Origin: Pseudomonadota bacterium
Lineage (GTDB): Bacteria > Pseudomonadota > Alphaproteobacteria > Sphingomonadales > Sphingomonadaceae
Assembly (NCBI GenBank): GCA_023433445.1
Contig: JAEZCS010000058.1
Coordinates: forward strand, 885 to 64,884
Direction: 5' to 3'
Length of the DNA: 64,000 nt
Shown here: piece by piece, positions 2,295-49,909 of the stretch
Position numbering within the stretch: the first letter of the stretch is position 1
How the letters are laid out: each line of letters opens with the position of its first letter
The notes under the pieces: model-generated
What the model saw: only the letters and a program-made list of their open reading frames with translations
The model's database searches: none
What the model was told of the DNA's origin: nothing
Program-made: the position numbers and the translations under genes

Positions 2295-2322
2295 AGATAC
2301 TATAGGATATCGGATAGCTACC
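2295..2322. repeat. AT-rich composite motif, copy A (AGATACTATAGGATATCGGATAGCTACC)
   Basis: Read directly from the sequence. It shares the AGATACTATA + GGATATC + GATAGCTAYC architecture with copies at 32.3, 33.4, 36.6, 39.4, 48.2 and 49.9 kb. Confidence 0.6.
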
Positions 2323-2366
2323 AGTCATAAACTTCTCTATGCGGCTGTGAGGTAAGGCCCCCTAGC

Positions 2367-2582
2367 TCAAAGGCGACGAGCAGCATCCCTGCCCTGGTGC
2401 AGAATACGGATAATCGCGACGCCGTAATCGGTCTGCTGAGAATAGATCATGGTGCTCAGTCCTTTCTGATGCCGCGGCAAGTCATTGCACCTGATCGATA
2501 CACTGCGTCCTGACCCGTCCTGCAAATGCCTCTGATGGATAAACGAAAAGTTGGGCGGTATTCGGCGATGGGGAAGTGAGCG
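2367..2582 (-). pseudogene. ParE/RelE-family toxin remnant (C-terminal part only)
   Basis: Hand translation of the minus strand gives ..SGRSVSIRCNDLPRHQKGLSTMIYSQQTDYGVAIIRILHQGRDAARRL*. This resembles the C-terminal half of ParE toxins (..G.P...L..G.R....GSH.vFY.....v.IiRvLHQ.m..). The frame is open for only 71 codons, has no plausible full-length start and has no cognate antitoxin upstream. Confidence 0.35.
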
Positions 2583-2649
2583 TCATGGTTGAATATCGTG
2601 GCAATTTTTGCCATATTTGGATGATTGGAGGTACCAGCCAGTGGCTACC

Positions 2650-2922
2650 ATGAATGTTTCCCTGCCCGATCCCCTGCGGGACTATGTGCAAAACCGTATC
2701 GACAGCGGCCAATATGCCAGCGTCAGCGATTATGTGCGCGATCTGATCCGCCGCGATCAAAGCGCGATCGTTGACGAAGAACGCTGGCTGAAGGAACTCG
2801 ACGCCTCGATTGACGAAAGCCTTCAGGAGATGCGGGCCGGTGGCGGCCATGATCTCGATGAAGTGTGCGACGCGATCATTGCTGACATCGAGAGAACTGC
2901 GAGCGGTGAAGCGCCTCAATGA
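2650..2922 (+). CDS. parD: ParD-family antitoxin (RHH, type II TA)
   Basis: MNVSLPDPLRDYVQNRIDSGQYASVSDYVRDLIRRDQ is the classic ParD/COG3609 N-terminus. I prefer the ATG at 2650 over the track start at 2608. There is a 4-nt overlap with the downstream toxin gene. Confidence 0.85.
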   Translation: MNVSLPDPLRDYVQNRIDSGQYASVSDYVRDLIRRDQSAIVDEERWLKELDASIDESLQEMRAGGGHDLDEVCDAIIADIERTASGEAPQ

Positions 2923-3215
2923 AGGTTGCGCTGTCCACCCCGGCCAAGCGCGACTTCGAAGGTATCCGAAGACATATCGAGAAAGGCAACCCCGTCCGCG
3001 CAATCTCGTTTGTTGAGGAACTGCGCGATGTCGCAAGGCGCATAGGCGACATGTCACGCGCCTTTCCGCTGATCCCGCGCTACGAACAGCACGGAATCAG
3101 GCGGCGCTCCTACAACGGCTATGGCATCCTCTATTCGGTGCAGCCTGATCGCGTGTTCGTGCATCGCATCATCGGCCCCGGTCAGGATCACGACCGCGCC
3201 TTGCGGCTGAATTGA
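2919..3215 (+). CDS. parE: ParE/RelE-family toxin
   Basis: 98 aa with ..AKRDFEGIRRHIEKGNPVRAISFVEELRDVARRIGDMSRAFPLIP..GIRRRSYNGYGILYSVQPDRVFVHRIIGPGQD. Size, motifs and ATGA coupling to parD are all typical. Confidence 0.85.
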   Translation: MKVALSTPAKRDFEGIRRHIEKGNPVRAISFVEELRDVARRIGDMSRAFPLIPRYEQHGIRRRSYNGYGILYSVQPDRVFVHRIIGPGQDHDRALRLN

Positions 3216-3313
3216 AGGCGGGGCCGGTGAGGGCCGTACTCATCCGGCATGGGGAAAACACGGCCAACACCGGGCTTGCCAGCGCCAATGCGGCGTCTCG
3301 CAAGCTACGTCTA

Positions 3314-4477
3314 TCAGGCTGCACGCGATGCAAAGTAGCCCTTGAAATAGGCCGGTTTACGCCTGTCCTTGTCACGATAGAGCGCTGCATCAGCACGGCG
3401 CACCAGATCTGCTATCCCTTCACCGGGCAGCACGGCAGCGCTGCCCATGCTGGCAGAAACCCGAGCACCACCGGCCGCCTTTCGGATCACAGACGACATT
3501 TCAATCGCTTGGCGGAGGGACGCCTTGAGCGATTCAGACTCATGGAGGTCGCAGCCGCGTAGCAGGATTGCGAACTCATCTCCGCCAAGGCGCCAAAACA
3601 TGTCTGGATCGCGCAATTGTTGGCGGACCACCTGAGCAAAGGTCTTCAGCAAGGTGTCGCCCGCCTGATGGCCGAGCCGGTCATTCACCTTCTTAAACTC
3701 ATCAAGATCAAGGAGAAGCAGCGCAGTCGGAACGCCATCTTCCGTCGCGGGAACGACCCTGCGCATCGTGGCGTCAAACGCTCTTCGGCTGCCGATGCCC
3801 GTCAGGAAGTCGGTGTTGGCCGCGCGCCTTTCCTTAAGGCCCCTTCGCTCCGCGATGGTCCCCACGATGAGCGTCGCCATCGCTGCGGCAAAGAGAACGA
3901 TCTCAAGGGCGATCGCAGCGCCCCATGCGCTCTCAACATCCTCGGTCGCTGCGTTGATCAGGCCGAGCGTGGGCCCGAATGCCGCCCTGATCAGGTAAAA
4001 GAGCGCGTGAGCGGCGCATAGGCCAGCAGCAATCAACCGATTGCGCTCTTCCTTTGTCGCACCATGGACAAGTTCGAATGCAGCCGCGGCAGAATAGCCG
4101 CAGACCAGAATGGAGCAGACCACGACACGGCTTGCAAAACCAAGTTCGAACAGCCCGCAAAGCAGGGGCCATATCGCGAATGCAACGATCAGCGGCCAGA
4201 CAAGCGGCTTGCGTCCGGCAAGGGAGCGTGCACCTGCATGACAACAGCCATAGGCCGACAAAAACAATGTGTTGGCGACGAGAAGCTGAAGACTACCCGG
4301 TCCTGCAGGCGCCAGAACGAGAAGCAGAAACCCGGAAGCCCCGAGCAGGAAACTTGCAATCCACCACAGCCCCGCCCGATCCTCACCTGACCGCCGGACC
4401 ACAACCGCGAGCACCATCCCAAACAGAAACAGCGTCAGGAATGCGGTTGTTAAAAGCGTAGCTGGATCGAATTTCAT
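3314..4477 (-). CDS. membrane-anchored diguanylate cyclase (GGDEF domain)
   Basis: The N-terminal ~190 aa are hydrophobic (about 6 TM segments). The C-terminal part reads DFLTGIGSRRAFD..LLLLDLDEFKKVNDRLGHQAGD..RLGGDEFAILL, with a GGDEF active site. Confidence 0.85.
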   Translation of the reverse strand: MKFDPATLLTTAFLTLFLFGMVLAVVVRRSGEDRAGLWWIASFLLGASGFLLLVLAPAGPGSLQLLVANTLFLSAYGCCHAGARSLAGRKPLVWPLIVAFAIWPLLCGLFELGFASRVVVCSILVCGYSAAAAFELVHGATKEERNRLIAAGLCAAHALFYLIRAAFGPTLGLINAATEDVESAWGAAIALEIVLFAAAMATLIVGTIAERRGLKERRAANTDFLTGIGSRRAFDATMRRVVPATEDGVPTALLLLDLDEFKKVNDRLGHQAGDTLLKTFAQVVRQQLRDPDMFWRLGGDEFAILLRGCDLHESESLKASLRQAIEMSSVIRKAAGGARVSASMGSAAVLPGEGIADLVRRADAALYRDKDRRKPAYFKGYFASRAA

Positions 4478-4573: not shown

Positions 4574-5269
4574 CTATGGAAATGCCTTCTTCTCATATAC
4601 TTCCGCGATCTCCACCCCATCCCAACGGTAGGTCAGGTGCCGCTCTTGCCGGCAATCGGAAAGGAGACGAGGCCGAAAGATGGCGACGCATGTGCCACCG
4701 GGATCACGCACACTATCGTAGATGATCCCATCCGACCCATTAGCGCGTAGCCTGCGGGCAAAGGCTTGGCTCGCTCCATAATCATCTTTCGCGTAGAGCC
4801 CTGGCCGGGAGCCTTGCAGCTTGCGAATGTCGTGGAGGTCAGCCTTGGCCTTCGCAACATAGACCCGCATATCGACATCGATCGGGGCTTCCCTGGTGCG
4901 GGCCAGGAAGATCTCGCGGTGATGCTTGGTTTCGGCCACGGCCGTCTCAATTTCGAAGCTGGCATAATAGGAACCGAAGCTGTGATCGGTAAAGCGGCCG
5001 CCTTCCGGATTGAGATGGGTGAAGGCAGCCATGATGGGGGTGGAGCCTGGGCCAGTGACGCGATCCGTGAGCGGGACCAGTCTGATGTTCCCGGCTTCAT
5101 CCTCCAACCGGTCATTGGTCATCGCCTCAATGGCGAAAACTGCCTCCAAATCCTCGGGCCGGGCGACGCGATCGAAGACGCTGACCGGCGGAAAGATGGA
5201 GGGGACGATCCGGTAGACACGCCTATCTGTGGCCGTCACTGGCGGCGTGAAATCGCTGGCGTTGATCAT
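4574..5269 (-). CDS. RES-domain toxin (NAD+ phosphorylase family)
   Basis: Arg in EGGRFTD, Glu in IETAVAETKHH and Ser in IIYDSVRDPGG make up the RES signature. The start is chosen at MINASDF (5269), which overlaps the stop of the upstream antitoxin; the track ORF extends to 5323. Confidence 0.85.
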   Translation of the reverse strand: MINASDFTPPVTATDRRVYRIVPSIFPPVSVFDRVARPEDLEAVFAIEAMTNDRLEDEAGNIRLVPLTDRVTGPGSTPIMAAFTHLNPEGGRFTDHSFGSYYASFEIETAVAETKHHREIFLARTREAPIDVDMRVYVAKAKADLHDIRKLQGSRPGLYAKDDYGASQAFARRLRANGSDGIIYDSVRDPGGTCVAIFRPRLLSDCRQERHLTYRWDGVEIAEVYEKKAFP

Positions 5270-5270
5270 G

Positions 5271-5696
5271 TCAGCCTCGCTGGGCGTCCAAATACTGGCG
5301 GACGAGGAAGAGGTCCGAAACATTGCCTCGGGTCATCCGCTCAAGCGCGGTCCCGCCGCCCAGCAGGGGCGCATCGTTAGGCGCGCGCAACCAGGCATCA
5401 GCCCGTTCGCGGTCGGGAAGGAGGATGTTGATTGCCTTGAAGATGCCGAAAATATAGCTGATCCGCTCGAGCGTGTCCCTTGCAAGCCTGGAGACCTTCC
5501 CCGCCTTCCAGCTATGGAGAGTGGATCGACTGGAAAGACCAAGAAGGCTCATCTGCTCAGCCTCGCTCAGATGCCAGGCATCAGCGATGTTGAAGAAGGT
5601 ACGTAACGCAGGACCGCTAAGATCGGCAGTATCCGTGCTGGGTTCCGCCTTGGGCTTCCGGGCAGGCATATACGCTCCGCATTTAACGATGCTCAT
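5271..5696 (-). CDS. Xre/MbcA/ParS-type antitoxin (DUF2384) of the RES toxin
   Basis: The C-terminus ..DRERADAWLRAPNDAPLLGGGTALERMTRGNVSDLFLVRQYLDAQRG is typical of DUF2384 antitoxins. It sits immediately upstream of, and overlaps, the RES gene. An alternative ATG lies at 5669. Confidence 0.8.
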   Translation of the reverse strand: MSIVKCGAYMPARKPKAEPSTDTADLSGPALRTFFNIADAWHLSEAEQMSLLGLSSRSTLHSWKAGKVSRLARDTLERISYIFGIFKAINILLPDRERADAWLRAPNDAPLLGGGTALERMTRGNVSDLFLVRQYLDAQRG

Positions 5697-19165: not shown

Positions 19166-19167
19166 CA

Positions 19168-33399: not shown

Positions 33400-33400
33400 A

Positions 33401-38026: not shown

Positions 38027-38149
38027 TTCGTGCTTTCGAGTAGGAAAGCGAAATTTCACCCTATTTGATTCGTGCTTTCGAGTAGAAATTGCCCCTCGAT
38101 TCGTGCTTTCGAGTAGAATTAGGACGGCCAAATTCGTGCTTTCGAGTAG
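38027..38149 (+). repeat. iteron array: four direct copies of TTCGTGCTTTCGAGTAG (candidate oriV)
   Basis: Perfect 17-mers start at 38027, 38069, 38100 and 38133, with spacings of 42, 31 and 33 bp. The array lies just downstream of repA. Confidence 0.85.
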
Positions 38150-38234
38150 AAATTAGCCCACCAAAAGGGTGCAGGCGCGAATCAGGAAGGGCTTAGCAAA
38201 ACCCTTTGCAGGTCGGCGGTAGGAAAGGGGGCTT

Positions 38235-39122
38235 TCAGGCCTCTTCGACCTGATCCTCGATCATCAGTTCAGGGCCCGGCTGCGGCCGGCGGGAGAGAAT
38301 GACCCGCGCCTTGGCAGGCCTGCGTCCTACCTTGCGGGGGCCGTCTTCTGCCGGAGCGTCCTCGATCAGGCTGATGTCATAGTCGGGGATGGCATTGGCC
38401 GCCGCGATCTGGCGCATGGCGATGCGGAAATTGGACAGCGGGTTCTGGAAGCCGATCTGCAGCTTAAGCGTCTGGAGGTCCATCTCCAGCGGTTCACCAT
38501 CGGCGCAGGTCGAGTGCGCCACCTCGTAAATGCGGCGCTCGATCGGGCCAAGCTGGAAATAAGTTGAGGCATAATCAAGCACTTGCCGGTCGCGCAGGAT
38601 GGCACGGAACAGCCAGTCGCACAGCCGAACCTTGACCGCCTTCAGCCGCTTTTCACCCTTGCCCGAGCGCGCATATTGCAACCTGGCTTCGGACAACCAG
38701 GAGAAGAAACCGTCTTCGCCTTCGCCTCCAGCCTCGATATTCGTCTTGATCTGCGTGCCCTGCAGCCGCTCCAGCGCGTCGGCCAGGCGCGAGTAGGAAC
38801 GGGCGCTGTGGTTGGAGCCTGTGACGCTGAACAGGTCGTGGGCGGTGAAGGTGAAATCCTGAGAAACCGCCGCGCCTTCGTCGATCTTCGACGCCATGAG
38901 GCTGGCGATATAGAGGACGATTTCCTTGTCGTAGATGGTCGCAACGCCCCGCGCGCTCGGCCGTACCTCGATCGAAACGGTGGGGGTGGCGTAGGCGAGG
39001 GGCTTCATCCAGGCATTCTTGCTAAGCGCAAAGAAGGGAAAGGCCATCAGCGACCGCTCGCCGCGGATCTCGCCGATAAGGGGGCTATCGAGCTTGAACA
39101 GTTCGCCTTGCGGGGTGCCCAT
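38235..39122 (-). CDS. repA: replication initiator protein RepA (RPA family)
   Basis: MGTPQGELFKLDSPLIGEIRGERSLMAFPFFALSKN..IEVRPSARGVATIYDKEIVLYIASLM is the hallmark N-terminus of the alphaproteobacterial Replication initiator protein A family. The start is set at the ATG at 39122; the track ORF extends to 39158. Confidence 0.88.
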   Translation of the reverse strand: MGTPQGELFKLDSPLIGEIRGERSLMAFPFFALSKNAWMKPLAYATPTVSIEVRPSARGVATIYDKEIVLYIASLMASKIDEGAAVSQDFTFTAHDLFSVTGSNHSARSYSRLADALERLQGTQIKTNIEAGGEGEDGFFSWLSEARLQYARSGKGEKRLKAVKVRLCDWLFRAILRDRQVLDYASTYFQLGPIERRIYEVAHSTCADGEPLEMDLQTLKLQIGFQNPLSNFRIAMRQIAAANAIPDYDISLIEDAPAEDGPRKVGRRPAKARVILSRRPQPGPELMIEDQVEEA

Positions 39123-39161
39123 TATGATCGTTCCTTGCCCATTATGCCGCTCTGGCAATTT

Positions 39162-39178
39162 CTACTCGAAAGCACGAA
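39162..39178 (-). repeat. fifth iteron copy, inverted, in the repA upstream region (candidate autoregulatory operator)
   Basis: CTACTCGAAAGCACGAA is the exact reverse complement of the 17-mer iteron. It lies 40 nt upstream of the preferred repA ATG. Confidence 0.75.
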
Positions 39179-39383
39179 TTGCAGTTCAGGCACCAGTCCT
39201 CTCCCGCATTCACGCGCCTATACGCCGTCTGCGCAGGGGTGGCGATAGGTGAGCTTTCGCAACCAGCAAGCCTTCGCCATGTCTTTCGAATGAAAGGCCA
39301 TCGCACCGCAGGCCTGGAGAGGCGGCAAGGCCAGGGTGCGGGTCTGCGGAAGGCGAGTTCGCCCTTGATGCTGCCGAGGCATA

Positions 39384-39411
39384 AGATACTATATAGTATC
39401 CTTTAGCTATC
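39384..39411. repeat. AT-rich composite motif, copy E (AGATACTATATAGTATCCTTTAGCTATC)
   Basis: Read directly. It lies between the rep module and the 3' end of the first membrane glycosyltransferase-like gene. Confidence 0.6.
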
Positions 39412-40930
39412 TCGCGCCGTTCAGCGCTGCCCCCTCGGCGCGCAGGGCGAAGCGATCGGACGGCAATCGGCGTAGGCTAAACAGCCCCAGCAGGAGCAGC
39501 CCGCCCAAGCTGACAAGCGCGCCCGTCCATTCCTGCCAGAGCCAGACGCGCTCGATCCGGTAATGGCCAGGTTGCGCCTGGAAACGGATGACGGCTCCTT
39601 GATAGGGCACGACCTCCTCACCTCGCATGACGCGCCAGATTGGGAAGGCCGCGCGGCGCATCATCACTTCGCCCGGCTTGTTCACCACCAATTCGTCGCC
39701 AGCCTTGACGCCACGCCAGGCGGTGAGGTCCGGTTTCCGATCATGCTCGCGGATGAGCCGGGTATCGAATCCGGCAGGCAGATATTCAAGGGCATCGGGC
39801 AAATCGCGTGCGATCATGGCATAAGGCACCGGCTTGGTCAGATACTCCGCTGCCTGCGGTGCCCATTTCATGTAAGAGAACAGGACCAGACCCAGGCCCA
39901 ATCCGAACATGATCGGCTTGGGTCGGCAGGTGAGTACGGCCGTTATCGCGGCAAACTCAAGCAGACCCAGCAACCGCCATGGAAATTGTGCTCGGCTGAG
40001 TGGTGGAATGTCCCATATGAAAGGGATGAGGCCAAGAGCGGCCAGCCCGGCTAGAATGCTTATCACAGCCCAGATCGACCGTTCTTTGAGGGACAGCAGG
40101 ACAAGTCCCGCGGTAAGGGCCGGAATTGACAGCACTTGGAGCAGGGAACCCGGCACCAACAACGCCCAGGATGACGGCCGATACCATGGTCCCCAGAGCA
40201 ACTGCGAGGAAATCTGATCCTGCAGGGTAAGCGCAGGGAGGAGATAGAAAGCGGCAAGGCTTAGGGCCAGCGCTCCGCTCACGACAATGGGCCAGAAGGC
40301 ACGACGATCTTGCGATAGCCTGTACAGGCCGAACGGAGCGATCAGAAAAAAGCCGGTTAGCATCGCCATAGGCAGATGCGTCAATATGAGGCCGCTATAA
40401 GACAGCGCCAGCATGATGATACCCCGCCGATCCGGAAGGCGTGTTATCGCCAGGGCAATGAGCGGATACCATATGAAGGCAAAATATTCCGCCAATGTAC
40501 CTCGCACATAAAAATCCATGAGGTGATAGGGGGCCGCCATATAGAGGATGGCGCCAAGTAGCGGATAGGTGCCGCGTTCCAAAAGCCAGTGGTACATGGT
40601 GACGCCAGACAACAGCAGCGCGACATAACCGGCCATGTTGATCGCGGCGAAAGTGGAAAGGCCGGACGCATCGAAGGCTCCCGCCACCCAATAGGCGACC
40701 GGCGGATAGAAGTAGAAGGCGGGGCTGCCCAACCCTTCAAAACTGTCCGGCAACCAGCGGGGATAGAGATTGCCTTTCGCCATCTCCGTCCCGAACTGAC
40801 TGGTCCAGATGTAATTATAACTGACCGAATGGGAGGCACCGGGGCCCAGCAGGAAAGTGGGCAACATGATGATCATTGCCACCAGCGCGAGAACGCCGAT
40901 ATTCCGAAGGCCGTTCCTGCTCGTCATCAT
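39407..40930 (-). CDS. polytopic membrane protein, GT-C-like (PTPS-related / YfhO-like family)
   Basis: From MMTSRNGLRNIGVLALVAMIIMLP the protein has more than 10 hydrophobic segments. ..EMAKGNLYPRWLPDSFEGLGSPAFYFYPPVAYW.. is the motif I associate with the 6-pyruvoyl-tetrahydropterin-synthase-related membrane family. The 118-aa Arg/Ser-rich N-terminal extension in the track ORF (to 41284) is rejected. Confidence 0.7.
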   Translation of the reverse strand: MMTSRNGLRNIGVLALVAMIIMLPTFLLGPGASHSVSYNYIWTSQFGTEMAKGNLYPRWLPDSFEGLGSPAFYFYPPVAYWVAGAFDASGLSTFAAINMAGYVALLLSGVTMYHWLLERGTYPLLGAILYMAAPYHLMDFYVRGTLAEYFAFIWYPLIALAITRLPDRRGIIMLALSYSGLILTHLPMAMLTGFFLIAPFGLYRLSQDRRAFWPIVVSGALALSLAAFYLLPALTLQDQISSQLLWGPWYRPSSWALLVPGSLLQVLSIPALTAGLVLLSLKERSIWAVISILAGLAALGLIPFIWDIPPLSRAQFPWRLLGLLEFAAITAVLTCRPKPIMFGLGLGLVLFSYMKWAPQAAEYLTKPVPYAMIARDLPDALEYLPAGFDTRLIREHDRKPDLTAWRGVKAGDELVVNKPGEVMMRRAAFPIWRVMRGEEVVPYQGAVIRFQAQPGHYRIERVWLWQEWTGALVSLGGLLLLGLFSLRRLPSDRFALRAEGAALNGAR

Positions 40931-41072
40931 TCCCCCGATCTCGCGCAACGTTCGCTTCCTGAACGAAAATGGTAAATAATATGTCACCCTTCGCCTGGGT
41001 GACGGATCGTTAACCATTTTCCCCGATAGCCTTAGAGGGGCGCCAACCCCGTGTTTGAGGGGCTCAGAAGGA

Positions 41073-42095
41073 ATGGTTAAGCCATCGCTGCTGTCGATCG
41101 TCGTTCCGGTCTTCAACGAACAGGAAAGCATTTCCCTGTTCCTGGATGCCGCGCGCCCCGCAGTAGCAGAGGCTCTCGCCCTTGTCGGGCCGGACGCCCG
41201 CGCCGAGTTTCTGTTCGTCAATGACGGCAGCACGGACCGGACCGGCGACATATTGTCGATCCTGTCCCGGCTGAACCCCGACATCCGTCATGTCACGCTG
41301 TCGCGCAATTTCGGCAAGGAAGCCGCGCTGGCCGCAGGCATTGACCGGGCGAGGGGGGACGCGGTCATCCCGATCGATGTCGACCTGCAGGATCCACCCG
41401 AAGTCATCGTCGAAATCGTGCGCCATTGGCTAGCAGGCGCGAAGGTGGTCAACGCGCGCCGCGCCGATCGGTCGAGCGACGACTGGTTCAAGCGCTGGAG
41501 CGCGCAGGGCTTTTATCGCCTGATCAACCGTCTTTCCGATCATCCCATTCCTGAAAATGTCGGCGATTTCCGGCTGCTCGACCGTCAGGCTGTCGATGTC
41601 ATCAAGCAGCTGGGCGAGCAGGCGCGCTTCACCAAGGGGCTTTTCTCTTGGGTGGGTTTCCGCGTCGCCACCGTCGATTACGAGCGAGCACCGCGCGAAG
41701 CTGGGATCAGCAAGTGGCGGGTCAGCAAGCTTTGGGGACTTGCGATCGATGGCATCACCGCCTCCACCACCATGCCCTTGCGCATCTGGTCCTATATCGG
41801 TGGAGGCATCGCCCTGATGGCCTTTGCCTATGCCGCTTTCCTGGTGCTGCACACGCTGCTGACCGGGATCGATTCACCGGGCTATGCGTCGATTATGGTC
41901 GCCGTGCTGATGCTGGGCGGCCTTAACCTGATGAGCCTTGGCATCATCGGCGAATATCTGGGCCGGGTCGCACAGGAAGTGCGCAATCGGCCGCTTTATG
42001 TCGTGGCCGAGGAAAGCGAGACCGCGCCGCCGCCCGCCACACAGCCCCATTTGGAGGAAGAAGAAAAATGGACCGCTCAGCCTATGCGAGCATGA
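41073..42095 (+). CDS. polyprenyl-phosphate sugar synthase, GT2 (GtrB/ArnC/DPM1-like)
   Basis: MVKPSLLSIVVPVFNEQESI..FVNDGSTDRT..LSRNFGKEAALAAGI..PIDVDLQDPPE..GDFRLLDR.., plus two C-terminal TM segments. The ATG at 41073 follows GAAGGA. Confidence 0.85.
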   Translation: MVKPSLLSIVVPVFNEQESISLFLDAARPAVAEALALVGPDARAEFLFVNDGSTDRTGDILSILSRLNPDIRHVTLSRNFGKEAALAAGIDRARGDAVIPIDVDLQDPPEVIVEIVRHWLAGAKVVNARRADRSSDDWFKRWSAQGFYRLINRLSDHPIPENVGDFRLLDRQAVDVIKQLGEQARFTKGLFSWVGFRVATVDYERAPREAGISKWRVSKLWGLAIDGITASTTMPLRIWSYIGGGIALMAFAYAAFLVLHTLLTGIDSPGYASIMVAVLMLGGLNLMSLGIIGEYLGRVAQEVRNRPLYVVAEESETAPPPATQPHLEEEEKWTAQPMRA

Positions 42096-42793
42096 GCGCG
42101 CAGGAGCAGGATCATTGGTGGTTCGTCGCACGCCGCGCCATCATCGACAGCCTGGTCCGCACCCATGTTTCGCTATCCCCTGACGCCCAGATCTTGGAAG
42201 CAGGTTGCGGCACGGGCGGCAACCTCGCCCTGCTGGCGCAATATGGCGCACTCGATGCGATGGAATATGACGCCGATGCACGCGCCCTTGCCACCGCGCG
42301 GGGCCTGTGCCGGGTGGAGGCGGGCGCCTTGCCGGGCGCGATCGGCTTTGACGATAAGCGCTACGACCTGATCGCGTTGCTCGACGTTCTGGAGCATATC
42401 GATGAGGATGACGCATCGCTGCGCGCTCTTGGCGCAAGGCTGGTGCCGCAAGGGCGCATCCTTTTGACCGTTCCCGCCGCGCCATGGCTCTGGTCGGACC
42501 ATGACGTGCTGCACCATCACAAGCGCCGCTACACGCATGAGGGCTTATTGGATGTCGTCCGCGCAGCGGGGTTGAAAGTCGAGGTCTCAGGCTATTTCAA
42601 CAGCCTGCTGTTCCCACTCGCGGTGGCACAGCGTGTCGCCCACCAGCTGCTGCGGCGCGACGCGCCGCTGGATGCGCGGCCATCCCCGCTCGTCAATGCG
42701 ACGCTTCAGCGGGTCTTTGCGGCGGAGCGGCATTTGCTTGGTCGCATTCCCTTTCCGACGGGCCTGTCACTTTACGCCATCCTCTCGGCCTGA
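42092..42793 (+). CDS. class I SAM-dependent methyltransferase
   Basis: ..ILEAGCGTGGNLALLAQYG (motif I) ..YDLIALLDVLEHIDED... The start is set at the ATG at 42092, giving an ATGA overlap with the GT2 stop; the track start is 42068. Confidence 0.8.
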   Translation: MSAQEQDHWWFVARRAIIDSLVRTHVSLSPDAQILEAGCGTGGNLALLAQYGALDAMEYDADARALATARGLCRVEAGALPGAIGFDDKRYDLIALLDVLEHIDEDDASLRALGARLVPQGRILLTVPAAPWLWSDHDVLHHHKRRYTHEGLLDVVRAAGLKVEVSGYFNSLLFPLAVAQRVAHQLLRRDAPLDARPSPLVNATLQRVFAAERHLLGRIPFPTGLSLYAILSA

Positions 42794-44338
42794 CGGCTCA
42801 TTGCGCGGATCATAGGGGAGGGGCCAAGGCCCGTCCCAGCAGCGCATTGGCTCTGTTGCTGCGGCGCGAGTGGGATCAGTCGGACGAATGAGCGTCGGGA
42901 CCTTCTCGATCGGGGCCAGATAGGACCCCTTGGGGTAGGATGTGAAGCTCTGGTCCCAAGCCTTGAAGAAGCTGCAACGCACCTCCGGCGCTGCCGGCTC
43001 GACCAGCGCGCGGCGGATCTCGGCCAGCCCCGTCAGGCTGCCGATCGCCAGCACCACGACAAGCCAGCGTCTCCTCTCACCCTTTTGCGCGATATGATCG
43101 CTGGTCATCACCGCGAGCAGGGTCAGGGCTGTGATAGAGCCGCGCATCATGAAATCAGTCGACCAGCCAATCTGCACGAATGGGATAACCATGAGCCAGG
43201 CAAAGACCAGCCACAGGCTTTCCCGCCCGAACCGCACCGACCGTCCTGCGAGTGCCAAGGGTATCAGGAAGGGCAGCGTCTCAAAGGACTGGAAAAGCAG
43301 CCATTGGACAAAGGGGAGGGGCTGGTAGCGAAGCCCGACATCCTCTCCCGCAGCTCCGAGATAGATTAGTGTCGGAATACACAGAAGGAGCGCGACGGTA
43401 GGAACCAGGACATCCCTCCACCGCAGCGCCCGTGCGATCAGGGTCCGCACCCCCGCCAGGACGACGAAGGGCATGGCGCCCATCAGCCCTAGCGGAGACC
43501 AGAGTGCCGTCAGCGGCAGCAACGCCAGCCATGGAGCGAGCGGCAGCCGGCCCTCGCGCCACAACATATATCCGATTGCACCTATCCAACCCGAAAGTGC
43601 GTGCTGCGGCACCCAGAAAAGCAAGGTGATGGTCGAGGAATATTGGATGTCGGCCCAATCTTCCATGTGATCGGTCAACATTCCCTGCAGCAGCAGGTCG
43701 CCAATAGCATCCATGCCGGAAAACAGGACGAACACCAAAAGGCCGATCAGGCGTGAGCGCCGATCGGCGAACAGCAGGCTGCCGAGCGCAAGCAGCAGTC
43801 CGATCAGCGTCGCATTCTGCAGCAGCAAGGCGATATCCGCCGCACGGGGACCAAGAGCCTTGAAGACCAGCGCCGGCGCCAGGAACATGCCGATGGGCGC
43901 GCGCAACAGGTCGGGATCGGGGCGCGCCGTATAGACGAAGGGCCATGGATTAAGCCCCATGTCCCGCAGCACGGCAAAGCGCACCTGCCAATCCGCATTG
44001 GCATAGAAGAACCGCCCTTCCCCGCTCAGGATCAGCAGGAACAGCGCCACCAGCAAGCATGTCAGCAGCGTGCCAAGGCTAATCTCGCGGCTGTCCCTGG
44101 TAATTTTCGCAGTGAAGAAACAAAGCCCGGCGATGGCCACGCCACCCAGAACATAGGCCCAGGCAGGCGCGATATCGAGGAACCGCCATAGCAGCAGCTG
44201 ACTGCCGCCCAGCCAGGCGACAAGAACAGCCCAGATCCAGCGTGGGGCTATGGAAGCGGATAGCCAATTACGTGGCAAACCCGCGGCATTGACGCCGCTG
44301 AATGGCTCAGCCTGTTCCGCCAGAATGGATGTGCCCAC
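42767..44338 (-). CDS. polytopic membrane protein (GT-C / polymerase-like), unknown family
   Basis: 523 aa with about 12 or more hydrophobic segments and normal membrane-protein composition. It is the last gene of the minus-strand operon. I recognise no motif. Confidence 0.6.
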   Translation of the reverse strand: MGTSILAEQAEPFSGVNAAGLPRNWLSASIAPRWIWAVLVAWLGGSQLLLWRFLDIAPAWAYVLGGVAIAGLCFFTAKITRDSREISLGTLLTCLLVALFLLILSGEGRFFYANADWQVRFAVLRDMGLNPWPFVYTARPDPDLLRAPIGMFLAPALVFKALGPRAADIALLLQNATLIGLLLALGSLLFADRRSRLIGLLVFVLFSGMDAIGDLLLQGMLTDHMEDWADIQYSSTITLLFWVPQHALSGWIGAIGYMLWREGRLPLAPWLALLPLTALWSPLGLMGAMPFVVLAGVRTLIARALRWRDVLVPTVALLLCIPTLIYLGAAGEDVGLRYQPLPFVQWLLFQSFETLPFLIPLALAGRSVRFGRESLWLVFAWLMVIPFVQIGWSTDFMMRGSITALTLLAVMTSDHIAQKGERRRWLVVVLAIGSLTGLAEIRRALVEPAAPEVRCSFFKAWDQSFTSYPKGSYLAPIEKVPTLIRPTDPTRAAATEPMRCWDGPWPLPYDPRNEPSGREDGVK

Positions 44339-44352
44339 GATATCTCAGGCCC

Positions 44353-45969
44353 CTAAAGAGACGGACATTTTGCTTCTGAGGCTGGGGCAGCAGAGGGCCA
44401 ACGCAGGAGAAGTCCACCGATCCTTTCTTCCTGAGGATAGGCCGACAGGATCGCTGCAGCTACCGGGGGATTGTAGCGAGCCAGGAACGGCGACCGGTCC
44501 GTTTTCCCTTCGATCACGAACAAGCCGAAACAATGGGCACGTATCAGCTTGGCGAAAGCAAGTTGGTCATATTTGCCCAGTTGCCCAAGTTCGGCAGTTA
44601 TAGCTGATTCCCATTCGACATTCCTGCCAGCCCGAATGAGCAACGTCATGTCATCAGAAATGGTTGGTCGCGTGGACGACGCAATCCTCTCTACAATGCG
44701 GCTGCGCGCTTTGGTTTGCTGCTCCACCACCTGCATACCGGGAAAATATATGGGCAAGACGGCCAATTGCAGAGGCAGAGCGACAAGGGCGAGCGCCACA
44801 AGGATCGGTGACAACCTCGGTGCAAGAGGTGTGGGGCCCATCGCCCGCACTACCAAAGGGGCGAGCGCCAGCCCCGCAAAGATTGCGACCACGGAGAACC
44901 ATTCGATCATATAGTTGAAACTGGCCCCCGATTTCAGGATCCCCAGCAGCATAATCGTCTTCAGCCCAAGGAAAATCAGCAGCATCAGTACGGCGATCAT
45001 GGTCCGGTCCCGAGCCAGAACCTCGAGGCCTAAGGTAGGTGAGCCGCTTCCAGCAAGATTCCTACGAATAGCCCGCCAGCTTGTCCCAACACCCAGAATC
45101 GATAGCAGGATTAGCGCCATGTGCATGACTAGCTGCGGGAACAGGATGTCGCCGAACGACGATGGCATGAAGCGATTGATGTTATAAGACAGGATATGCG
45201 TCAGAAACCCGCCATCTGTGGCCAAGCTCAACCATGCGAGCGCCAGCAGGCCGAATAAGAGGGAAACGATGATACCACGTACAGCCAGCCCCGGACGCAC
45301 CAGCAGCAGCACCGAAAAAGCCGCCATGGGCGCTGCGATCGATATCTGCTTTGTATAAACCGACAGGAGGAACATTGCTGCCGCGCCGTATATGCACGCG
45401 GGGCGATCAAGCGCACGCAAGGCGAGTAACATGCCTCCCAAGGCCAACGCACCTGACAACATGTCTACCCGCATCAAGGGGGTCCAGACCAATACGGGAT
45501 AGCTGGTGAGGAAGAACAATCCGGCCATTGTTGCACAGATGACCCGGACGCGATTCTCCACCTCCGCGGGCATCGCGCGCGCCGCCAGCAGTCCCACCAT
45601 ATAGACGGTGGCAAAGGAGGAAAAAATCGAGACGAGCCGGCCTGCTACCAGTTGATCTGCGCCTGTGAGCCCCGCCAGCGCGGCTGACGTCATGTGATAG
45701 ACAGGAGGATAGTGATAGACGATCGCTGGATAGACCTGAAGCGGGCCATAGGCAGTGCCGCCCACCATGTCCCGCATCTGCTGCCAGACAATGCCTTCGC
45801 CGTAATCAAGCGCGTAGGGGTAGAAGAGGACAGCCTTCAGATAGGCTAGCAACTCGCCAGCATGCCAGATCATGATGGCCAAGAGGATGCTGAACCCAGC
45901 AACAAGCAGGACCATAGTCCGATCGGGAGCTACGCCCGTGTTTCGAGCGATTCTCACGCCTTTAGCCAC
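44353..45969 (-). CDS. polytopic membrane protein, GT-C-like glycosyltransferase candidate
   Basis: 538 aa. The first loop, ..FYPYALDYGEGIVWQQMRDM..VYHYPPVYH.., resembles the acidic first periplasmic loop of ArnT/PMT/GT87-type enzymes. More than 10 TM segments follow. Confidence 0.65.
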   Translation of the reverse strand: MAKGVRIARNTGVAPDRTMVLLVAGFSILLAIMIWHAGELLAYLKAVLFYPYALDYGEGIVWQQMRDMVGGTAYGPLQVYPAIVYHYPPVYHMTSAALAGLTGADQLVAGRLVSIFSSFATVYMVGLLAARAMPAEVENRVRVICATMAGLFFLTSYPVLVWTPLMRVDMLSGALALGGMLLALRALDRPACIYGAAAMFLLSVYTKQISIAAPMAAFSVLLLVRPGLAVRGIIVSLLFGLLALAWLSLATDGGFLTHILSYNINRFMPSSFGDILFPQLVMHMALILLSILGVGTSWRAIRRNLAGSGSPTLGLEVLARDRTMIAVLMLLIFLGLKTIMLLGILKSGASFNYMIEWFSVVAIFAGLALAPLVVRAMGPTPLAPRLSPILVALALVALPLQLAVLPIYFPGMQVVEQQTKARSRIVERIASSTRPTISDDMTLLIRAGRNVEWESAITAELGQLGKYDQLAFAKLIRAHCFGLFVIEGKTDRSPFLARYNPPVAAAILSAYPQEERIGGLLLRWPSAAPASEAKCPSL

Positions 45970-46609
45970 GATGTTTCGCCGGACGCGCCACGATCAGCAT
46001 CTGTTTGCCCATCGGTTTGACGGGTGAGCGCAGATAGGCGCCTACCAGCATCTTCCATGTGGGAAGGCGCGATTTGATGCTGAGTGGCAGGAAACGCGGA
46101 TGCACTTCCAGAACTTCCCATCCGTGCGCCGTCATCAGGTCAGCCAGACTGATGTGCGAGTAGGCGGTAACATGCGTGTAATCATCGAAATATTCGCGGA
46201 AGGCATAGCGGTAATTGGGCTGGAGGATGGTGAGCCTGCCTCGATCCGATAATTTCGTCTCGAGCGAAGAGAGGACGTTAACCAGTTCCTGCTGCGACAG
46301 ATGTTCGAACAAATTGGAAGCAAACGCGAAATCGACGGTACCATCCTGAATGGCTGTCAGATCCTCGGCAGGGCCAATGATTGTCTCCACATCCGACGTC
46401 ACGTGCTGACGCATGCCCGGCCACATATCGAGTGCGATCCTGCGCGATGCAGTCACACTATTGATAAAGTCCCCATAGCCCGCTCCCAAATCGAGCACGC
46501 AATCCGCTGGCGTGATGCGATAGCGGAAATAATAGTGCCACAGAGCGCCCCACACACCGGCGCGGCGCGCGTCGGCTGTCAGACGGGATTCATGATAATT
46601 GCCGGTCAT
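45962..46609 (-). CDS. class I SAM-dependent methyltransferase
   Basis: MTGNYHESRL..CVLDLGAGYGDFIN (motif I)..VDFAFASNLFEHL... The start is set at the ATG at 46609, giving an ATGA overlap with the upstream GT2 stop. The 79-aa Arg/Pro/Gln-rich extension of the track ORF is rejected. Confidence 0.75.
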   Translation of the reverse strand: MTGNYHESRLTADARRAGVWGALWHYYFRYRITPADCVLDLGAGYGDFINSVTASRRIALDMWPGMRQHVTSDVETIIGPAEDLTAIQDGTVDFAFASNLFEHLSQQELVNVLSSLETKLSDRGRLTILQPNYRYAFREYFDDYTHVTAYSHISLADLMTAHGWEVLEVHPRFLPLSIKSRLPTWKMLVGAYLRSPVKPMGKQMLIVARPAKHRG

Positions 46610-47631
46610 GCATAGCGCTTCCAATTGTCGAGCATGCCGAAAATCATGCGCATGCCCACCGAAAAACCGCGCCAGTTGTTGACGTTGCCGCCCTTGCTGA
46701 CCCCAACCCGCGGATGGAAAGTGATGGGGCACTCGAGCAGGACCAGTCCGTTGCCGAGCGCGGTATCGAGGAAATGGGCGTTGAATTCGAGATTTACCGC
46801 AGGCTTCAGGCTGCCGAGCAGGGGGATCAGGGATTCCCGTCGGCACAGCTTGTAGGTCGTGCCGACATCGGTGATCGTGCCGCGGCCCAAATGCTTCGCT
46901 TCCAGGAGCTTGCCGACAAAGATATTGCCGTAATACATGAAGGTGGAAAGCTGCGTGAAGTACTGGCGCAGAGGCTCAACCGTCCTTGTGCCATTTACTA
47001 TGTCGGCATGTGGCGCATAGGCCAGCAGCTTTTCTATGTCATAGGCGCGAAAGGTGCTGTCGCCTTCGCATAGGACAACAAATTCGGTATCCTCGAACTT
47101 CACCGCTTCTGAAAGGCAGCGAAAGACACAACGGCCATAGCCCGGCGCCAATTCGTTGAAGGTGATAGCGCCTGCACTTTCCGCCCGCTGGAAAGTGCGG
47201 TCGCTGCTGTTGTTGCTGACAACAATCACGCGCTCCACCAGTGGATGATCCAGAAAATCCCTGACCGCAGGCGCGATACTATCCTCATCATTATAGGCCG
47301 TCAGCGCCACGGTTACGCGACGTCGACTGACAGGCTGAAAGCGGACGGGTTCATTGGGCTTCTTGCCTCCGAACAGGAAGAGGAGATCGAAGAGAGCAAA
47401 GGCTAGTCCCAGCACGATCGGAACGCCACTGTACCATACAAGCCAGGCAGAAACCGGATCGAGCAGATCACGCAGGCCTAGTAAATACCGGGGAAAAACC
47501 AGCAGAACGCCGATTAGATAGGCACCGAAGCCGAGGATCAACAACAAGACGCCATAGAGCAGAAAGGGCGTATGATTATTCTGTTTCGTGGCGTTCTTCA
47601 TTGTGCCCCCAGCCAATGGTGCTGAAGACAC
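46606..47631 (-). CDS. membrane-anchored glycosyltransferase family 2 (polyprenyl-phosphate sugar synthase-like)
   Basis: Two N-terminal TM segments are followed by ..VTVALTAYNDEDSIAPAVRDFL..VIVVSNNSSDRT..VVLCEGDSTF... Confidence 0.75.
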   Translation of the reverse strand: MSSAPLAGGTMKNATKQNNHTPFLLYGVLLLILGFGAYLIGVLLVFPRYLLGLRDLLDPVSAWLVWYSGVPIVLGLAFALFDLLFLFGGKKPNEPVRFQPVSRRRVTVALTAYNDEDSIAPAVRDFLDHPLVERVIVVSNNSSDRTFQRAESAGAITFNELAPGYGRCVFRCLSEAVKFEDTEFVVLCEGDSTFRAYDIEKLLAYAPHADIVNGTRTVEPLRQYFTQLSTFMYYGNIFVGKLLEAKHLGRGTITDVGTTYKLCRRESLIPLLGSLKPAVNLEFNAHFLDTALGNGLVLLECPITFHPRVGVSKGGNVNNWRGFSVGMRMIFGMLDNWKRYA

Positions 47632-47674
47632 TTAAATTTCATATGGTTAATTATGCGTAATGAGGCTGCAATTC

Positions 47675-48073
47675 TCAGGCGGTCCGAAAGACCCAATGGC
47701 GCGCGACGAGGAATGTCATGAAGGGAGTGGCGGCGATCATCAATATGATCGGGGTCCAGCTTGCCAAACCCAACCTGCCGGTCAACAGCCAGACCCACAG
47801 TGAGTTAAGCCCGAAGGCAGCGACCGACATCACCAAATATCGTACCATGCTGGGGAAATTGATGTTGCTCTGCCGAAAACTGTAGAGCCGGTGCATCTGA
47901 TAGCCCAAAGCCAGTTGCGTGGTATAGGCCACGTAATTGGCTAGCAGCGGCGCCCAGCCTAGCAAGACCGCGCACATATAATAGGTCGCAACTGCAACCA
48001 GTGCGACGCCGCCACCATTAATGGCAAAGCGGAGAAACGCCGCCCAGCAAGACTGGCTCAAAATGGCCCTCAT
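47675..48073 (-). CDS. gtrA: GtrA-family membrane protein (polyprenyl-phosphate-sugar flippase-like)
   Basis: 132 aa with four TM segments and ..RFAINGGGVALVAVATYY..ANYVAYTTQLALGYQMHRLYSFR.. typical of GtrA-like proteins. Confidence 0.8.
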   Translation of the reverse strand: MRAILSQSCWAAFLRFAINGGGVALVAVATYYMCAVLLGWAPLLANYVAYTTQLALGYQMHRLYSFRQSNINFPSMVRYLVMSVAAFGLNSLWVWLLTGRLGLASWTPIILMIAATPFMTFLVARHWVFRTA

Positions 48074-48155
48074 GACGATATCATGAATAGGGAAGCAGCG
48101 TTAACGGCTCGTTGATATACTCCTGCAGCAAACCGCTCGTCGACTTGTTCCATTC

Positions 48156-48187
48156 GGTATCTTTCAGATACTAGATGGATACTATTC
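48156..48187. repeat. AT-rich composite motif, copy F (GGTATCTTTCAGATACTAGATGGATACTATTC)
   Basis: Read directly. It lies in the 133-bp gap between the 527-aa membrane gene and gtrA. Confidence 0.55.
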
Positions 48188-48206
48188 AAACTAATTGCTG
48201 CGATGC

Positions 48207-49790
48207 TTATACAGCTGGAACGAAATTCGGGCATTCCGGGTCATAATGCGCCGGTTCACGAGGCGTGATGCGATCATAGGCATAAAACCAAGGCGTTGGT
48301 TTCCGTTCGCGATAATTATGCCCCAGATAAGAGCGGATATCCGCACGGCGCAGGAAAAACGCCCGAACATCGAAGCTTGATGGCTGATATGTGTAATTGG
48401 CGCGGCGCTCGAACAGGATCAAGGCAGGCGAGGAACAGCGTATTTCCAGCGCTGCTTCTTCCTGCACCCGCTTCGCCAAGGCGCGTAGCGGCCCTGGATT
48501 GGGGCCAATTACCTCACCATGCGCTATCGCCGGTATCATCCAGTAAGCATAGAGGCGCGATGGCCAGGCAAGTCCATGATCTCCAACCGTCGGCCATCCC
48601 CACATTGGTTCGCTTGACGCAATGAAGACGGGGCTCCCCTCTGGCAATGTAGCCAAAACCGGATCAATCTTGCCCCTGAAGAAGTTAAAATAGGGACCGG
48701 TCATGACTGGCATCAATATGGGCAGTGCCAGCATGAGCAGTCCAATGCCGGTCGGGATCAACCGACGCATGTCGGCCATCCCCAATCGTACGCCCAGCGC
48801 CAATGCCGCCGCGCCCGTCACAGGCACGCTGTGATAGAGCCACCCCTTGCGCTGAAGAAAATAGGCAAAGCCATAGCCAATGGCGACAATCAGCAGGGTA
48901 GAAACCAATGGGTTCGCTTTCCTGCCGAACGCTCCACCAAAAGTCAGGAAAAATGCGGCGATGAAGGCCCAGATCACGATCCAGGGCCGCAACAATATCG
49001 CCTCCCATGATGATTCAAAGCCGTGGTAAGCCATGCGGACCATCGGCAGATTGTCAGTGAAAAAAGCAGGGGTGAGCAAGATCACCGCGGCTGCATAGAC
49101 CAAGGCGAAAAGCCCCAGCGCGACGGTTTCCGGCCGGACAGGGCGCCATTGGGAGCGATTGCACGCGGCTAGCCACAATTCCAGCAACACCGGAATGATC
49201 ACGAAATAATGCTTTAACGCAAATCCGTAAGCGGCTGCGATGCCCACAAGAAGCGCCAATGCCGGGGACACGCCTCCCCCTGTGGTCCGGCGCGCGATCA
49301 ATGCTGCGTAAGCAACAGAGCAAATCAACGTGATATGTTCGCGCTGGCCGAAGTCATAGAGTGGCCCAACCAAGATGAGCCAGAATGACAGGAGCATCAC
49401 CGCAAGCCGCGCGATTGGGGATGGAAAGGCCGATAGCCGCCCGATCGCCAGTACAGACAAGGTGGCGAGGCCTATGATTCCGATCACCAGCAGGCGCAGC
49501 GGCGGCATGGATAGCCATGCCGCGGTGTCCCGCACCGGCATGGCCGACCAGAACCAGAGAGGGGGGTTTACTTCCCACACATCACGGTAGAGCAGCGCGC
49601 CATTGATCATCTGGCGGGCGACCCAAAACTGCCACACGACATCATGCGTGAGCGGAATATCGTATAGCAATATCGCCGAGATGCCGGATACCACGCAAAT
49701 CAGGATTTCCGGCAGATAGCGTTTCGCCCAGGAACCCACCGCACCATCAAGGTCAGTGCGGTACAGCCATTCTAGCAGATTGCTCCTCAT
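48207..49790 (-). CDS. polytopic membrane protein, GT-C-like glycosyltransferase candidate
   Basis: 527 aa. The first loop is ..LTHDVVWQFWVARQMINGALLYRDVWEVNPPLWFW.., followed by more than 10 TM segments. The overall layout is ArnT/GT83/GT87-like. Confidence 0.65.
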   Translation of the reverse strand: MRSNLLEWLYRTDLDGAVGSWAKRYLPEILICVVSGISAILLYDIPLTHDVVWQFWVARQMINGALLYRDVWEVNPPLWFWSAMPVRDTAAWLSMPPLRLLVIGIIGLATLSVLAIGRLSAFPSPIARLAVMLLSFWLILVGPLYDFGQREHITLICSVAYAALIARRTTGGGVSPALALLVGIAAAYGFALKHYFVIIPVLLELWLAACNRSQWRPVRPETVALGLFALVYAAAVILLTPAFFTDNLPMVRMAYHGFESSWEAILLRPWIVIWAFIAAFFLTFGGAFGRKANPLVSTLLIVAIGYGFAYFLQRKGWLYHSVPVTGAAALALGVRLGMADMRRLIPTGIGLLMLALPILMPVMTGPYFNFFRGKIDPVLATLPEGSPVFIASSEPMWGWPTVGDHGLAWPSRLYAYWMIPAIAHGEVIGPNPGPLRALAKRVQEEAALEIRCSSPALILFERRANYTYQPSSFDVRAFFLRRADIRSYLGHNYRERKPTPWFYAYDRITPREPAHYDPECPNFVPAV

Positions 49791-49881
49791 GGCAATTTTG
49801 TACCAACGGCAAATTGATGAATGATAAAGAATAGTTGGTAACCATGGGCGGTCGCTAGGCTAATGCTGCCCCCCAGCAGGT

Positions 49882-49909
49882 GGATAACCGATAGCTATCC
49901 AATATCTAC
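49882..49909. repeat. AT-rich composite motif, copy G (GGATAACCGATAGCTATCCAATATCTAC)
   Basis: Read directly, about 90 bp upstream of the 527-aa membrane gene start. The overlapping GGTGGATAAC is also 8/9 to a DnaA-box-like sequence (see the rejected list). Confidence 0.55.

Follow-up and report, generated by a model that had tools for sequence, protein, structure and literature searches.

On plasmid pB171, the type Ib partition genes parA-parB of the par2 locus have a centromere-like array on either side, parC1 and parC2. Sites of a partition protein can also be distributed over a whole replicon, as in the case of the OB sites of KorB on RK2 and the dispersed centromeres of prophage N15, some of which are located near promoters of unrelated operons. 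Another type of dispersed element is represented by the pdif modules of Acinetobacter plasmids, in which sites of about 28 bp for XerC/XerD lie between gene modules. The ParG protein of TP228 binds tetramer boxes in direct and inverted orientation that have both operator and centromere roles, and it has an arginine finger in its flexible tail (PMC3130281). The omega protein of pSM19035 has six heptad arrays at the promoters of copS, delta and omega, and at least four contiguous repeats are required for the full activation of ParA (PMC9499535). Here, a family of short repeat arrays is described that was found on a sphingomonad replicon, using 64 kb (the window) of a 70,041-bp metagenomic contig (JAEZCS010000058.1) with a G+C content of 58.5%. 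The seven arrays of the window, designated A to G, are most probably binding sites of the plasmid's own ParG-type centromere-binding protein, the product of 107 amino acids (aa) of the gene at 33076-33399 (plus strand), which would be the partner of a ParA of 231 aa (32384-33079, plus strand).

An earlier note, made from the sequence of the window, had listed seven related AT-rich elements between genes, and it was verified that each of the seven quoted strings is present exactly once, where the note had placed it. The motif was also found to occur above chance. The words AGATACTA (5 copies in the window, 0.33 expected) and GATAGCTA (11 copies, 1.1 expected) were the most over-represented 8-mers of the window, aside from the repA iterons (38030-38160 and 39160). 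When up to three mismatches were allowed, GATATCNGATAGCTATC yielded 12 matches compared with 0.29 in shuffled sequences, and these covered A, B, C, D and G. The tetramers GATA/TATC reached a density of at least four per 45 bp at seven places only, and five of these were again A, B, C, D and G. A box-count rule, i.e., at least three boxes of GATATC, TAGCTA, GATAC or GTATC inside 34 bp, picked A, E and F, three arrays compared with 0.04 expected. The core consensus given in the note was recast. The unit is a triple box, GATAYC-N-GRTAGCTAYC-N-GATAYC, in which each box is dyad-like and the box centers are about 9 bp apart. The unit is nearly palindromic, and the copies fit the consensus almost equally on either strand. 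A variant of the central box, GATAC-TAT, is one base shorter and explains the left arm AGATACTAKA of the former consensus. In Burkholderia cenocepacia pTY921B the unit reads GATACC-G-GGTAGCTATC-G-GATACC and is repeated upstream of parA at intervals of about 31 bp, and a Pandoraea plasmid has about ten copies of GATATC-N-GATAGCTATC-N-GATA across 1.2 kb upstream of parA.

A 24-mer weight matrix was trained on 291 instances from other loci, leaving out the window and the plasmid pTomTYG71b, and the 95th percentile of the best scores per shuffle (14.3) was taken as threshold. The scan recovered G (30.8), C (27.8 and 25.6 for its two units), A (21.9) and B (20.1), all far above any shuffle, while D, F and E scored 14.2, 11.0 and 8.3, respectively. 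The boxes of E and F are mainly of the GATAC/GTATC type. Similar GATAC-only arrays flank parAB in three other loci (L020, L022 and L026), and the ParG-like proteins of these loci have a strand N-x-Q-x-N-x-K in common with the window protein. The strand of L022 is identical, and in L020 and L026 NQQ replaces NRQ at a variable R/Q position. Because E and F passed the box-count test and because arrays of this kind flank parAB in the three loci, they are regarded as plausible members of the array family. All seven copies are intergenic, as had been claimed, with E overlapping the stop codon of a 625-aa gene. The claim does not extend to every match, because a further two-box match, GGATAGCTATCGGCTACC (14380-14403, matrix score 15.0), lies inside an rfb-like open reading frame (ORF; 14115-15089, minus strand); this match may be a chance occurrence or non-functional.

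Comparative evidence for the proposed identity of the binding protein came from other genomes. Homologues of the 107-aa protein beside a small parA gene are encoded on 74 plasmids of the plasmid collection. Boxes are present upstream of parA on sphingomonad plasmids with ParG-like proteins of 52-90% identity, on Sphingopyxis pRW412b, and on three betaproteobacterial plasmids with unrelated (TrfA) replicons, from B. cenocepacia (pTY921B), Cupriavidus pauculus and Pandoraea commovens. Most of the plasmids in this set also have boxes just past the small gene. In addition, 26 genomic loci were retrieved with the 107-aa protein alone and were scanned with GATATCNGATAGCTATC, allowing up to three mismatches. 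The matches form two clusters. Relative to the parG start, one is located at -730 to -790 and thus immediately before parA (about 20 of the 26 loci), and the other at +330 to +400, just past the parG stop (about 17 of 26). The density at these two spots was 2.2-2.8 matches per kb, compared with 0.009 per kb in the distal flanks. Genome-wide repeats of the type of repetitive extragenic palindromes or miniature inverted-repeat transposable elements (REP/MITE) do not fit this distal density, nor the isolated metagenomic matches, which are not accompanied by arrays.

Searches that started from the DNA gave a corresponding result. A BLAST search with a 30-nt query made from element A matched 9 of 72,556 plasmids, at least seven of which encode a homologue of the 107-aa protein, at most about 2 kb from the match. 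A metagenome sample comprised 120 stretches with an exact GATATCNGATAGCTATC. ParA/ParG adjoined the motif in 30 of the 34 stretches that had at least three matrix matches, compared with a single case among the 71 stretches that had no more than one match. Together with the plasmid search, these fractions showed that the motif travels with the pair of ParA and the small protein and is not a general intergenic word. The largest array that was seen, 26 matrix matches within 5.3 kb by ParA/ParG, is on the metagenome contig FTJL01019972.1 (L101) and might lend itself to use as a model centromere. Across 36 array-bearing loci, a ParG homologue was encoded in 36, a homologue of the HTH_36 protein of the window in 17, and homologues of the ORF at 1199-2275 and of the integrase in two each; most of these loci had been retrieved through the ParG protein, and independent evidence is provided by L007-L010, which were picked by the DNA motif, and by the metagenome test. 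The association with the par genes thus supports one of the three readings in the earlier note, i.e., dispersed operators or centromere sites of one plasmid-encoded protein, and the 107-aa protein, a candidate that had been named there, is the most likely binder.

The two par genes form an operon of well-known organization. ParA is a small Walker-type ATPase without an N-terminal DNA-binding domain, as is characteristic of type Ib, and it matches VirC1, CbiA and AAA_31 of Pfam as well as the NCBIfam model ParA_partition (NF041546, E = 1.4e-33). The start of the ORF for the 107-aa protein overlaps the parA stop by 4 nt, and the gene order is the same in 36 of 36 loci. The N-terminal half of the 107-aa protein is of low complexity and disordered, and its C-terminal segment is RQINIKATEETITTLYSIADDMNLPLGAVLEQALAALAEK. 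In an alignment of alpha- and betaproteobacterial homologues (A1), the tail residues R4, P7 and F14 are invariant, and so are T59, G60, R61, N62, Q64, N66, K68 and T70. The latter residues alternate as would be expected for the DNA-reading strand of a ribbon-helix-helix protein, and this putative strand, TGRNxQxNxKxT, is invariant throughout the alpha- and betaproteobacterial homologues, matching the invariance of the boxes. Two homologues have the strand GRSEQVNIKTT instead, and around their par genes GGTACCA/AGTACCA boxes are found and TAGCTA boxes are absent, which represents a small piece of co-variation. A single-sequence model by AlphaFold2 (AF2) has an extended stretch that is followed by helices at 71-84 and 88-104, with a predicted local distance difference test (pLDDT) value of about 90. 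The Foldseek neighbors of the model, all with E values of at least 0.95, are nearly all ribbon-helix-helix proteins, including ParG (1p94), CopG, Arc, CdbA, AmrZ and several antitoxins, and close relatives of the 107-aa protein have a faint match to Pfam PF01402 (RHH_1). A ribbon-helix-helix fold is therefore considered likely. The Pfam search found no ParB domain in the 107-aa protein, and no other ParB was found beside the arrays. Sites for a helix-turn-helix ParB or KorB protein of type Ia are thus not supported, as the 107-aa protein does not have the ParB/Srx N-terminal domain.

Three of the arrays, B, C and D, occupy conserved positions of the partition-replication backbone, and E is conserved in four lineages, so that the expected conservation in related plasmids was found for these copies. 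Array B (32313-32367) contains the half-composites AGATACTAGATAGGTACC and GATAGCCACCAGATAGCTAGATGGTATCC and is located in the 110-bp region between the divergent parA gene and a gene for a GT2 glycosyltransferase (30597-32273, minus strand). A putative parA promoter was read from the sequence at 32332-32360 (plus strand), with TTGACG (32332-32337) and CTAGAT (32355-32360) separated by 17 nt, and the boxes of B cover its spacer and its -10 hexamer. TTGACN-N17 with boxes in the spacer is also present in pTomTYG71b, L003, L013 and L031. The GT2 gene, which is followed by DUF5672 and PhyH genes, is kept divergent from parA throughout the sphingomonad plasmid family, and thus polysaccharide genes and the par operon use a common, array-filled promoter region. 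Array C (33399-33445) starts at the parG stop codon and contains two triple-box units in inverted orientation, which would form a long hairpin if single-stranded (z = -6.1).

Array D (36615-36670) is degenerate, with GGATATCCTAAAGCTACC, GAGATACC, GGATAGG and GTATCC following one another at intervals. It was verified that D lies between two convergent 3' ends in the window, as the note had pointed out; in most relatives the equivalent array is upstream of a small gene, which is replaced by a pair of a metY-like gene (33502-34857, minus strand) and a glutamate-synthase-like (gltB-like) gene (34988-36592, plus strand) in the window and its close relatives. D is about 210 bp downstream of the HTH_36 gene (36882-37775, minus strand), the distance being about 150-300 bp in relatives, and its position is kept in pTomTYG71b, L004-L006, L011, L012, L016, L024, L160 and L162. 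The content of the segment between C and D varies. In the window it contains the metY and gltB-like genes; pTomTYG71b and L004-L006 have a small ORF there, and L011 has an additional cassette with an autotransporter fragment. The latter locus is contig158 of Sphingobium quisquiliarum P25, where an array-bounded extra segment (3190-4280) that encodes a fragment of an autotransporter beta-domain lies between parG and a metY remnant. Next to it, 66 bp of the 3' end of parG are present as a duplicate, and the junction abuts the box GATATCTGGTAGCTATCC, which may be the trace of a recombination event beside an array.

Array E, AGATACTATATAGTATCCTTTAGCTATC (39384-39411), abuts and extends into the stop codon of the YfhO-like gene (625 aa), 204 bp upstream of the repA start region. 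Four lineages, i.e., the window, pTomTYG71b, S. agri and a close metagenomic relative, have its columns GATAC..G.TATCC..TAGCTATC without any change. In each of them E adjoins the end of a large YfhO-like gene, and an alignment of the flanks is not possible. E is better supported than F. Array F, GTATCTTTCAGATACTAGATGGATACTATTC (48157-48187), is the weakest member; it has GATAC-type boxes only, is located about 90 bp upstream of gtrA and resembles the array upstream of parA in L022, AGTATCTTTTAGATACC.

Array A, AGATACTATAGGATATCGGATAGCTACC (2295-2322), stands alone, 20 bp past the ORF at 1199-2275 (358 aa, plus strand). A toxin-antitoxin pair of the parDE type begins about 290 bp downstream of A. 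Synteny with Sphingopyxis pRW412b was found for the order integrase - ORF - array, and in that plasmid the par array and parA-parG come next. The final unit of the array of pRW412b, GATACTACCGGATATCAGATAGCTACCAG, lies 17 bp before parA and is nearly identical to A, and in the window parDE follows A in place of parA-parG. A, at least, looks like an orphaned parA-proximal unit that was left behind by mosaic evolution. Of all copies, array G, GGATAACCGATAGCTATCCAATATCTAC (49882-49909), fits the family matrix best. It is located 92-120 bp upstream of a gene for a 527-aa membrane protein (48207-49790, minus strand) and about 130 bp outside of an inverted-repeat remnant of a Tn3-family transposon. 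An eighth array (matrix score 15.3) is present in the 5.9 kb beyond the window, by a tRNA-Val gene and hipBA. Remote copies are not confined to this replicon, as pTomTYG71b has copies at 4088, 4730 and 47662, and L012 has an array at a distance of 65-110 bp before vapB.

From these comparisons we infer that the 107-aa protein would bind the arrays, with dimers that would coat adjacent boxes cooperatively, in analogy to ParG, omega and CopG. Arrays B and C, which bracket parA-parG, would form the partition complex and thus be the centromere, and at this complex ParA would be activated through the N-terminal tail of the 107-aa protein. Because boxes occupy both the spacer and the -10 hexamer of the putative parA promoter, it is proposed that the protein bound to B would also repress the parA operon, and it would probably also repress the divergent GT2 operon, which starts 40 bp away. 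D and E would be further arrays of the partition-replication backbone. A, F, G and the eighth copy would be stand-alone secondary sites near genes for toxin-antitoxin systems (parDE, hipBA) or glycosyltransferases that are open to the same protein. The remote arrays might provide additional sites for loading of the protein, or they might serve as local operators or roadblocks. Aside from B and C, the arrays may thus tune genes in their vicinity (repA, toxin-antitoxin pairs, glycosyltransferase genes) or contribute to the partition complex.

Several observations weigh against this explanation. Under the matrix, D is borderline, and E and F remain below the threshold. With about three boxes per array, A, E, F and G may be weak centromeres, because pSM19035 needs at least four contiguous repeats for full ParA activation. 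A, F and G do not visibly overlap with promoters; such an overlap is evident at parA only. In most relatives the arrays are confined to the partition-replication backbone, and the small complete plasmids L003 and L004 have arrays in the backbone only. Searches of Pfam, NCBIfam and PDB sequences gave no match for the 107-aa protein of the window, and its fold assignment is based on a single-sequence model and Foldseek E values of 0.95 or higher. Literature searches found no described member of the 107-aa family and no description of its site or box sequence, in agreement with the remark in the note that no element of this sequence was known. For A, F, G and the eighth copy, and perhaps also for E, an explanation that is possible, albeit not favored, is that these remote copies are relics of former par loci or of backbone from a mosaic assembly of the plasmid, which have no selected role and could still be bound by ParG. 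The integrase - ORF - array module at A, which precedes parA-parG in pRW412b and not in the window, the transposon remnant that adjoins G, the nearly array-free distal flanks of the 26 homologous loci and the backbone-only arrays of L003 and L004 are in accordance with relics. In contrast, E has been kept in four lineages in spite of rearranged flanks, G is the top match of the window and not decayed, and pTomTYG71b independently has four remote copies. In addition, searches with tblastn did not reveal fragments of par genes near A, F and G or remnants of them elsewhere in the window.

Other explanations do without a ParG-like binder. The note had suggested recombination sites that delimit exchangeable cassettes, i.e., core sites of a tyrosine recombinase similar to pdif, and it was correct that a tyrosine recombinase is encoded at the start of the window (1-1069, minus strand). 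Units of about 28 bp with imperfect dyad symmetry, the different content of the C-D segment in relatives, the duplicated 66-bp remnant of the parG 3' end that abuts a box in L011, and an integrase gene near A in both the window and pRW412b would fit to such sites, and the arrays are indeed located between transcription units. However, the arrays track ParA/ParG, and an integrase homologue is encoded in only two of the 36 array-bearing loci; the long tandem arrays directly upstream of parA, with up to 26 matrix matches in 5.3 kb, are centromere-like; and a palindromic central box would lack directionality. Furthermore, synteny breakpoints with the nearest relatives do not coincide with the motif, as homology ends at 39180, 48059 and 36771, in most cases 100-200 bp off the arrays (E, F and D, respectively), and at the spot of the gene that is flanked by F and G in the window, pTomTYG71b has a tRNA-Val gene and no element. 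Recombination sites are thus very unlikely, and the division of the plasmid into cassettes that the note had described holds only in a loose sense. A different binder is highly improbable, be it the HTH_36 protein, which had also been proposed in the note, the 358-aa ORF product by A, or a host factor. The HTH_36 gene adjoins D in the same backbone, and the ORF at 1199-2275 has a helix-turn-helix-like stretch and a homologue that adjoins the array in pRW412b, but neither approaches the 36 of 36 loci of ParG (17 and 2 of 36, respectively). Homologues of HTH_36 are absent from array-bearing betaproteobacterial plasmids, the helix-turn-helix gene by the B. cenocepacia array is unrelated, and the arrays are no genome-wide motif. 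It is also highly improbable that the elements function on their own, in the absence of a specific binding protein, as promoters, intrinsic terminators or insulators. AGATACTA reads TAGTAT, a -10-like sequence, on the minus strand of A, B, E and F, and minus-strand genes are downstream of B, E and F, yet a conserved -35 at a fixed distance is missing and the orientation to the genes is inconsistent, G being inverted. C and F can form hairpins, but the other five of the seven copies fold no better than shuffled sequences, and none has a T-run. Such elements would also leave the strict association with parA-parG unexplained. Scans for sigma-70 promoters and terminators were uninformative; even the likely parA promoter is missed by the rules of the scan.

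The preferred explanation, sites of the ParG-like protein, could be extended much further. It is tempting to speculate that this protein is a plasmid-wide organizer, with arrays that mark nearly every boundary of backbone transcription units as well as toxin-antitoxin loci and glycosyltransferase cargo operons including GT2, and that it would couple partition, replication, addiction and the expression of surface polysaccharides, the arrays also being portable homology for cassette swaps such as that between C and D. This scheme in its entirety is regarded as unlikely. Under this scheme, the arrays would be the most conserved non-coding DNA that related plasmids have in common.

The replicon is probably circular, because the two ends of the window are connected via the further 5.9 kb, and the nearest deposited plasmids are from Sphingobium, e.g., pTomTYG71b with about 86% identity across the par and rep genes. 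The parDE-type pair downstream of A (2608-3215, plus strand) was assigned by a ParE match in Pfam and by homology to ParD/ParE, with 83-91% identity of the segment to annotated ParD/ParE genes of other Sphingobium plasmids. Further pairs of this kind are a RES/Xre pair at about 4574-5696 and the hipBA pair within the 5.9 kb beyond the window. The RPA-type repA gene (38235-39158, minus strand) has iterons downstream (38021-38160), four direct copies of TTCGTGCTTTCGAGTAG(A/G)AA that are 31-42 bp apart. One inverted copy (39150-39185) overlaps the repA start region, which suggests an autoregulation of repA. A cluster of glycosyltransferase, methyltransferase and gtrA genes on mixed strands extends from 39407 to 48073; an exact look-up of the gtrA product gave no match. 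The Tn3-family transposon begins at about 50040. Its parts are a remnant of the terminal inverted repeat (50031-50082), which includes ...GGGGGCGGAATCCTACGCTAAG and matches more than 4000 plasmids, a serine resolvase gene (51760-52380) and a gene for a 1044-aa Tn3-type transposase (52263-55397), and an Sde182-like gene (50109-51638) lies inside the transposon. In the part of the contig that lies outside the window (L157 5650-6000 and 7860-7960), a tRNA-Val(GAC) gene was noticed, as was a second tRNA-like sequence on the opposite strand near the integrase gene. The tRNA-Val gene is also present on pTomTYG71b (L002 11697-11771, confirmed with ARAGORN). For the repeated 9-mer AATTACGTG, extended similarity was sought and none was seen.

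The results define the cis site of a widespread type Ib family of ParA and ParG-like proteins that is, as far as the searches show, uncharacterized. Plasmids with this family are found in Sphingomonadaceae, Burkholderiaceae and other Proteobacteria. The consensus of the site makes it possible to predict centromeres, incompatibility determinants and possible co-regulated genes on such plasmids, many of which carry capsule or O-antigen clusters. Eight arrays on 70 kb, some of them by toxin-antitoxin and glycosyltransferase genes, are a testable case of a ribbon-helix-helix partition protein that acts beyond its own operon, like omega in Gram-positive plasmids.

The kind of system as such is well known: a type Ib locus, a ribbon-helix-helix binder and arrays of repeats, some of which are at other promoters. 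The described systems differ from it in several respects. In contrast to pdif modules, the arrays go with ParA/ParG, are tandem and are not located at exact module junctions. KorB and the N15 protein are helix-turn-helix ParB proteins of type Ia that act on single palindromes, whereas the 107-aa protein has no ParB domain. The par2 locus of pB171 has another repeat sequence and another protein, and pB171 is not known to have remote copies such as those found here. The parFG-parH locus of TP228 (type Ib) is alike in that a small ParA-type gene is followed by a gene for a small, Arg-tailed ribbon-helix-helix(-like) protein, and in that short degenerate boxes in direct and inverted orientation lie upstream and overlap the promoter, which would make them both operator and centromere here as well (PMC3130281). 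The conserved Arg in the disordered N-terminal tail of the 107-aa protein parallels the arginine finger of ParG (PMC3130281). However, sequence similarity between ParG and the 107-aa protein could not be detected, the putative sites of the latter are GATAYC / GRTAGCTAYC triple units with box centers about 9 bp apart instead of ACTC tetramers with 4-bp AT spacers, a second array is present past the operon, and at least five more are present elsewhere on the replicon. In this respect the plasmid resembles the delta-omega system of pSM19035, in which one ribbon-helix-helix protein has separate arrays at partition, copy-control and toxin-antitoxin promoters and is both centromere binder and global regulator (PMC9499535). 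Likewise, arrays are found here at parA, near repA, and near parDE and hipBA (vapBC in a relative). Each omega site has 7-10 contiguous heptads of the 7-bp sequence WATCACW, whereas several of the arrays described here have about three boxes, and some lie between convergent genes or by glycosyltransferase cargo genes, the overlap with a promoter being evident at parA only. Taken together, the system is distinguished from these relatives by a well-defined, widespread new site and by the unusual dispersal of eight arrays over 70 kb.

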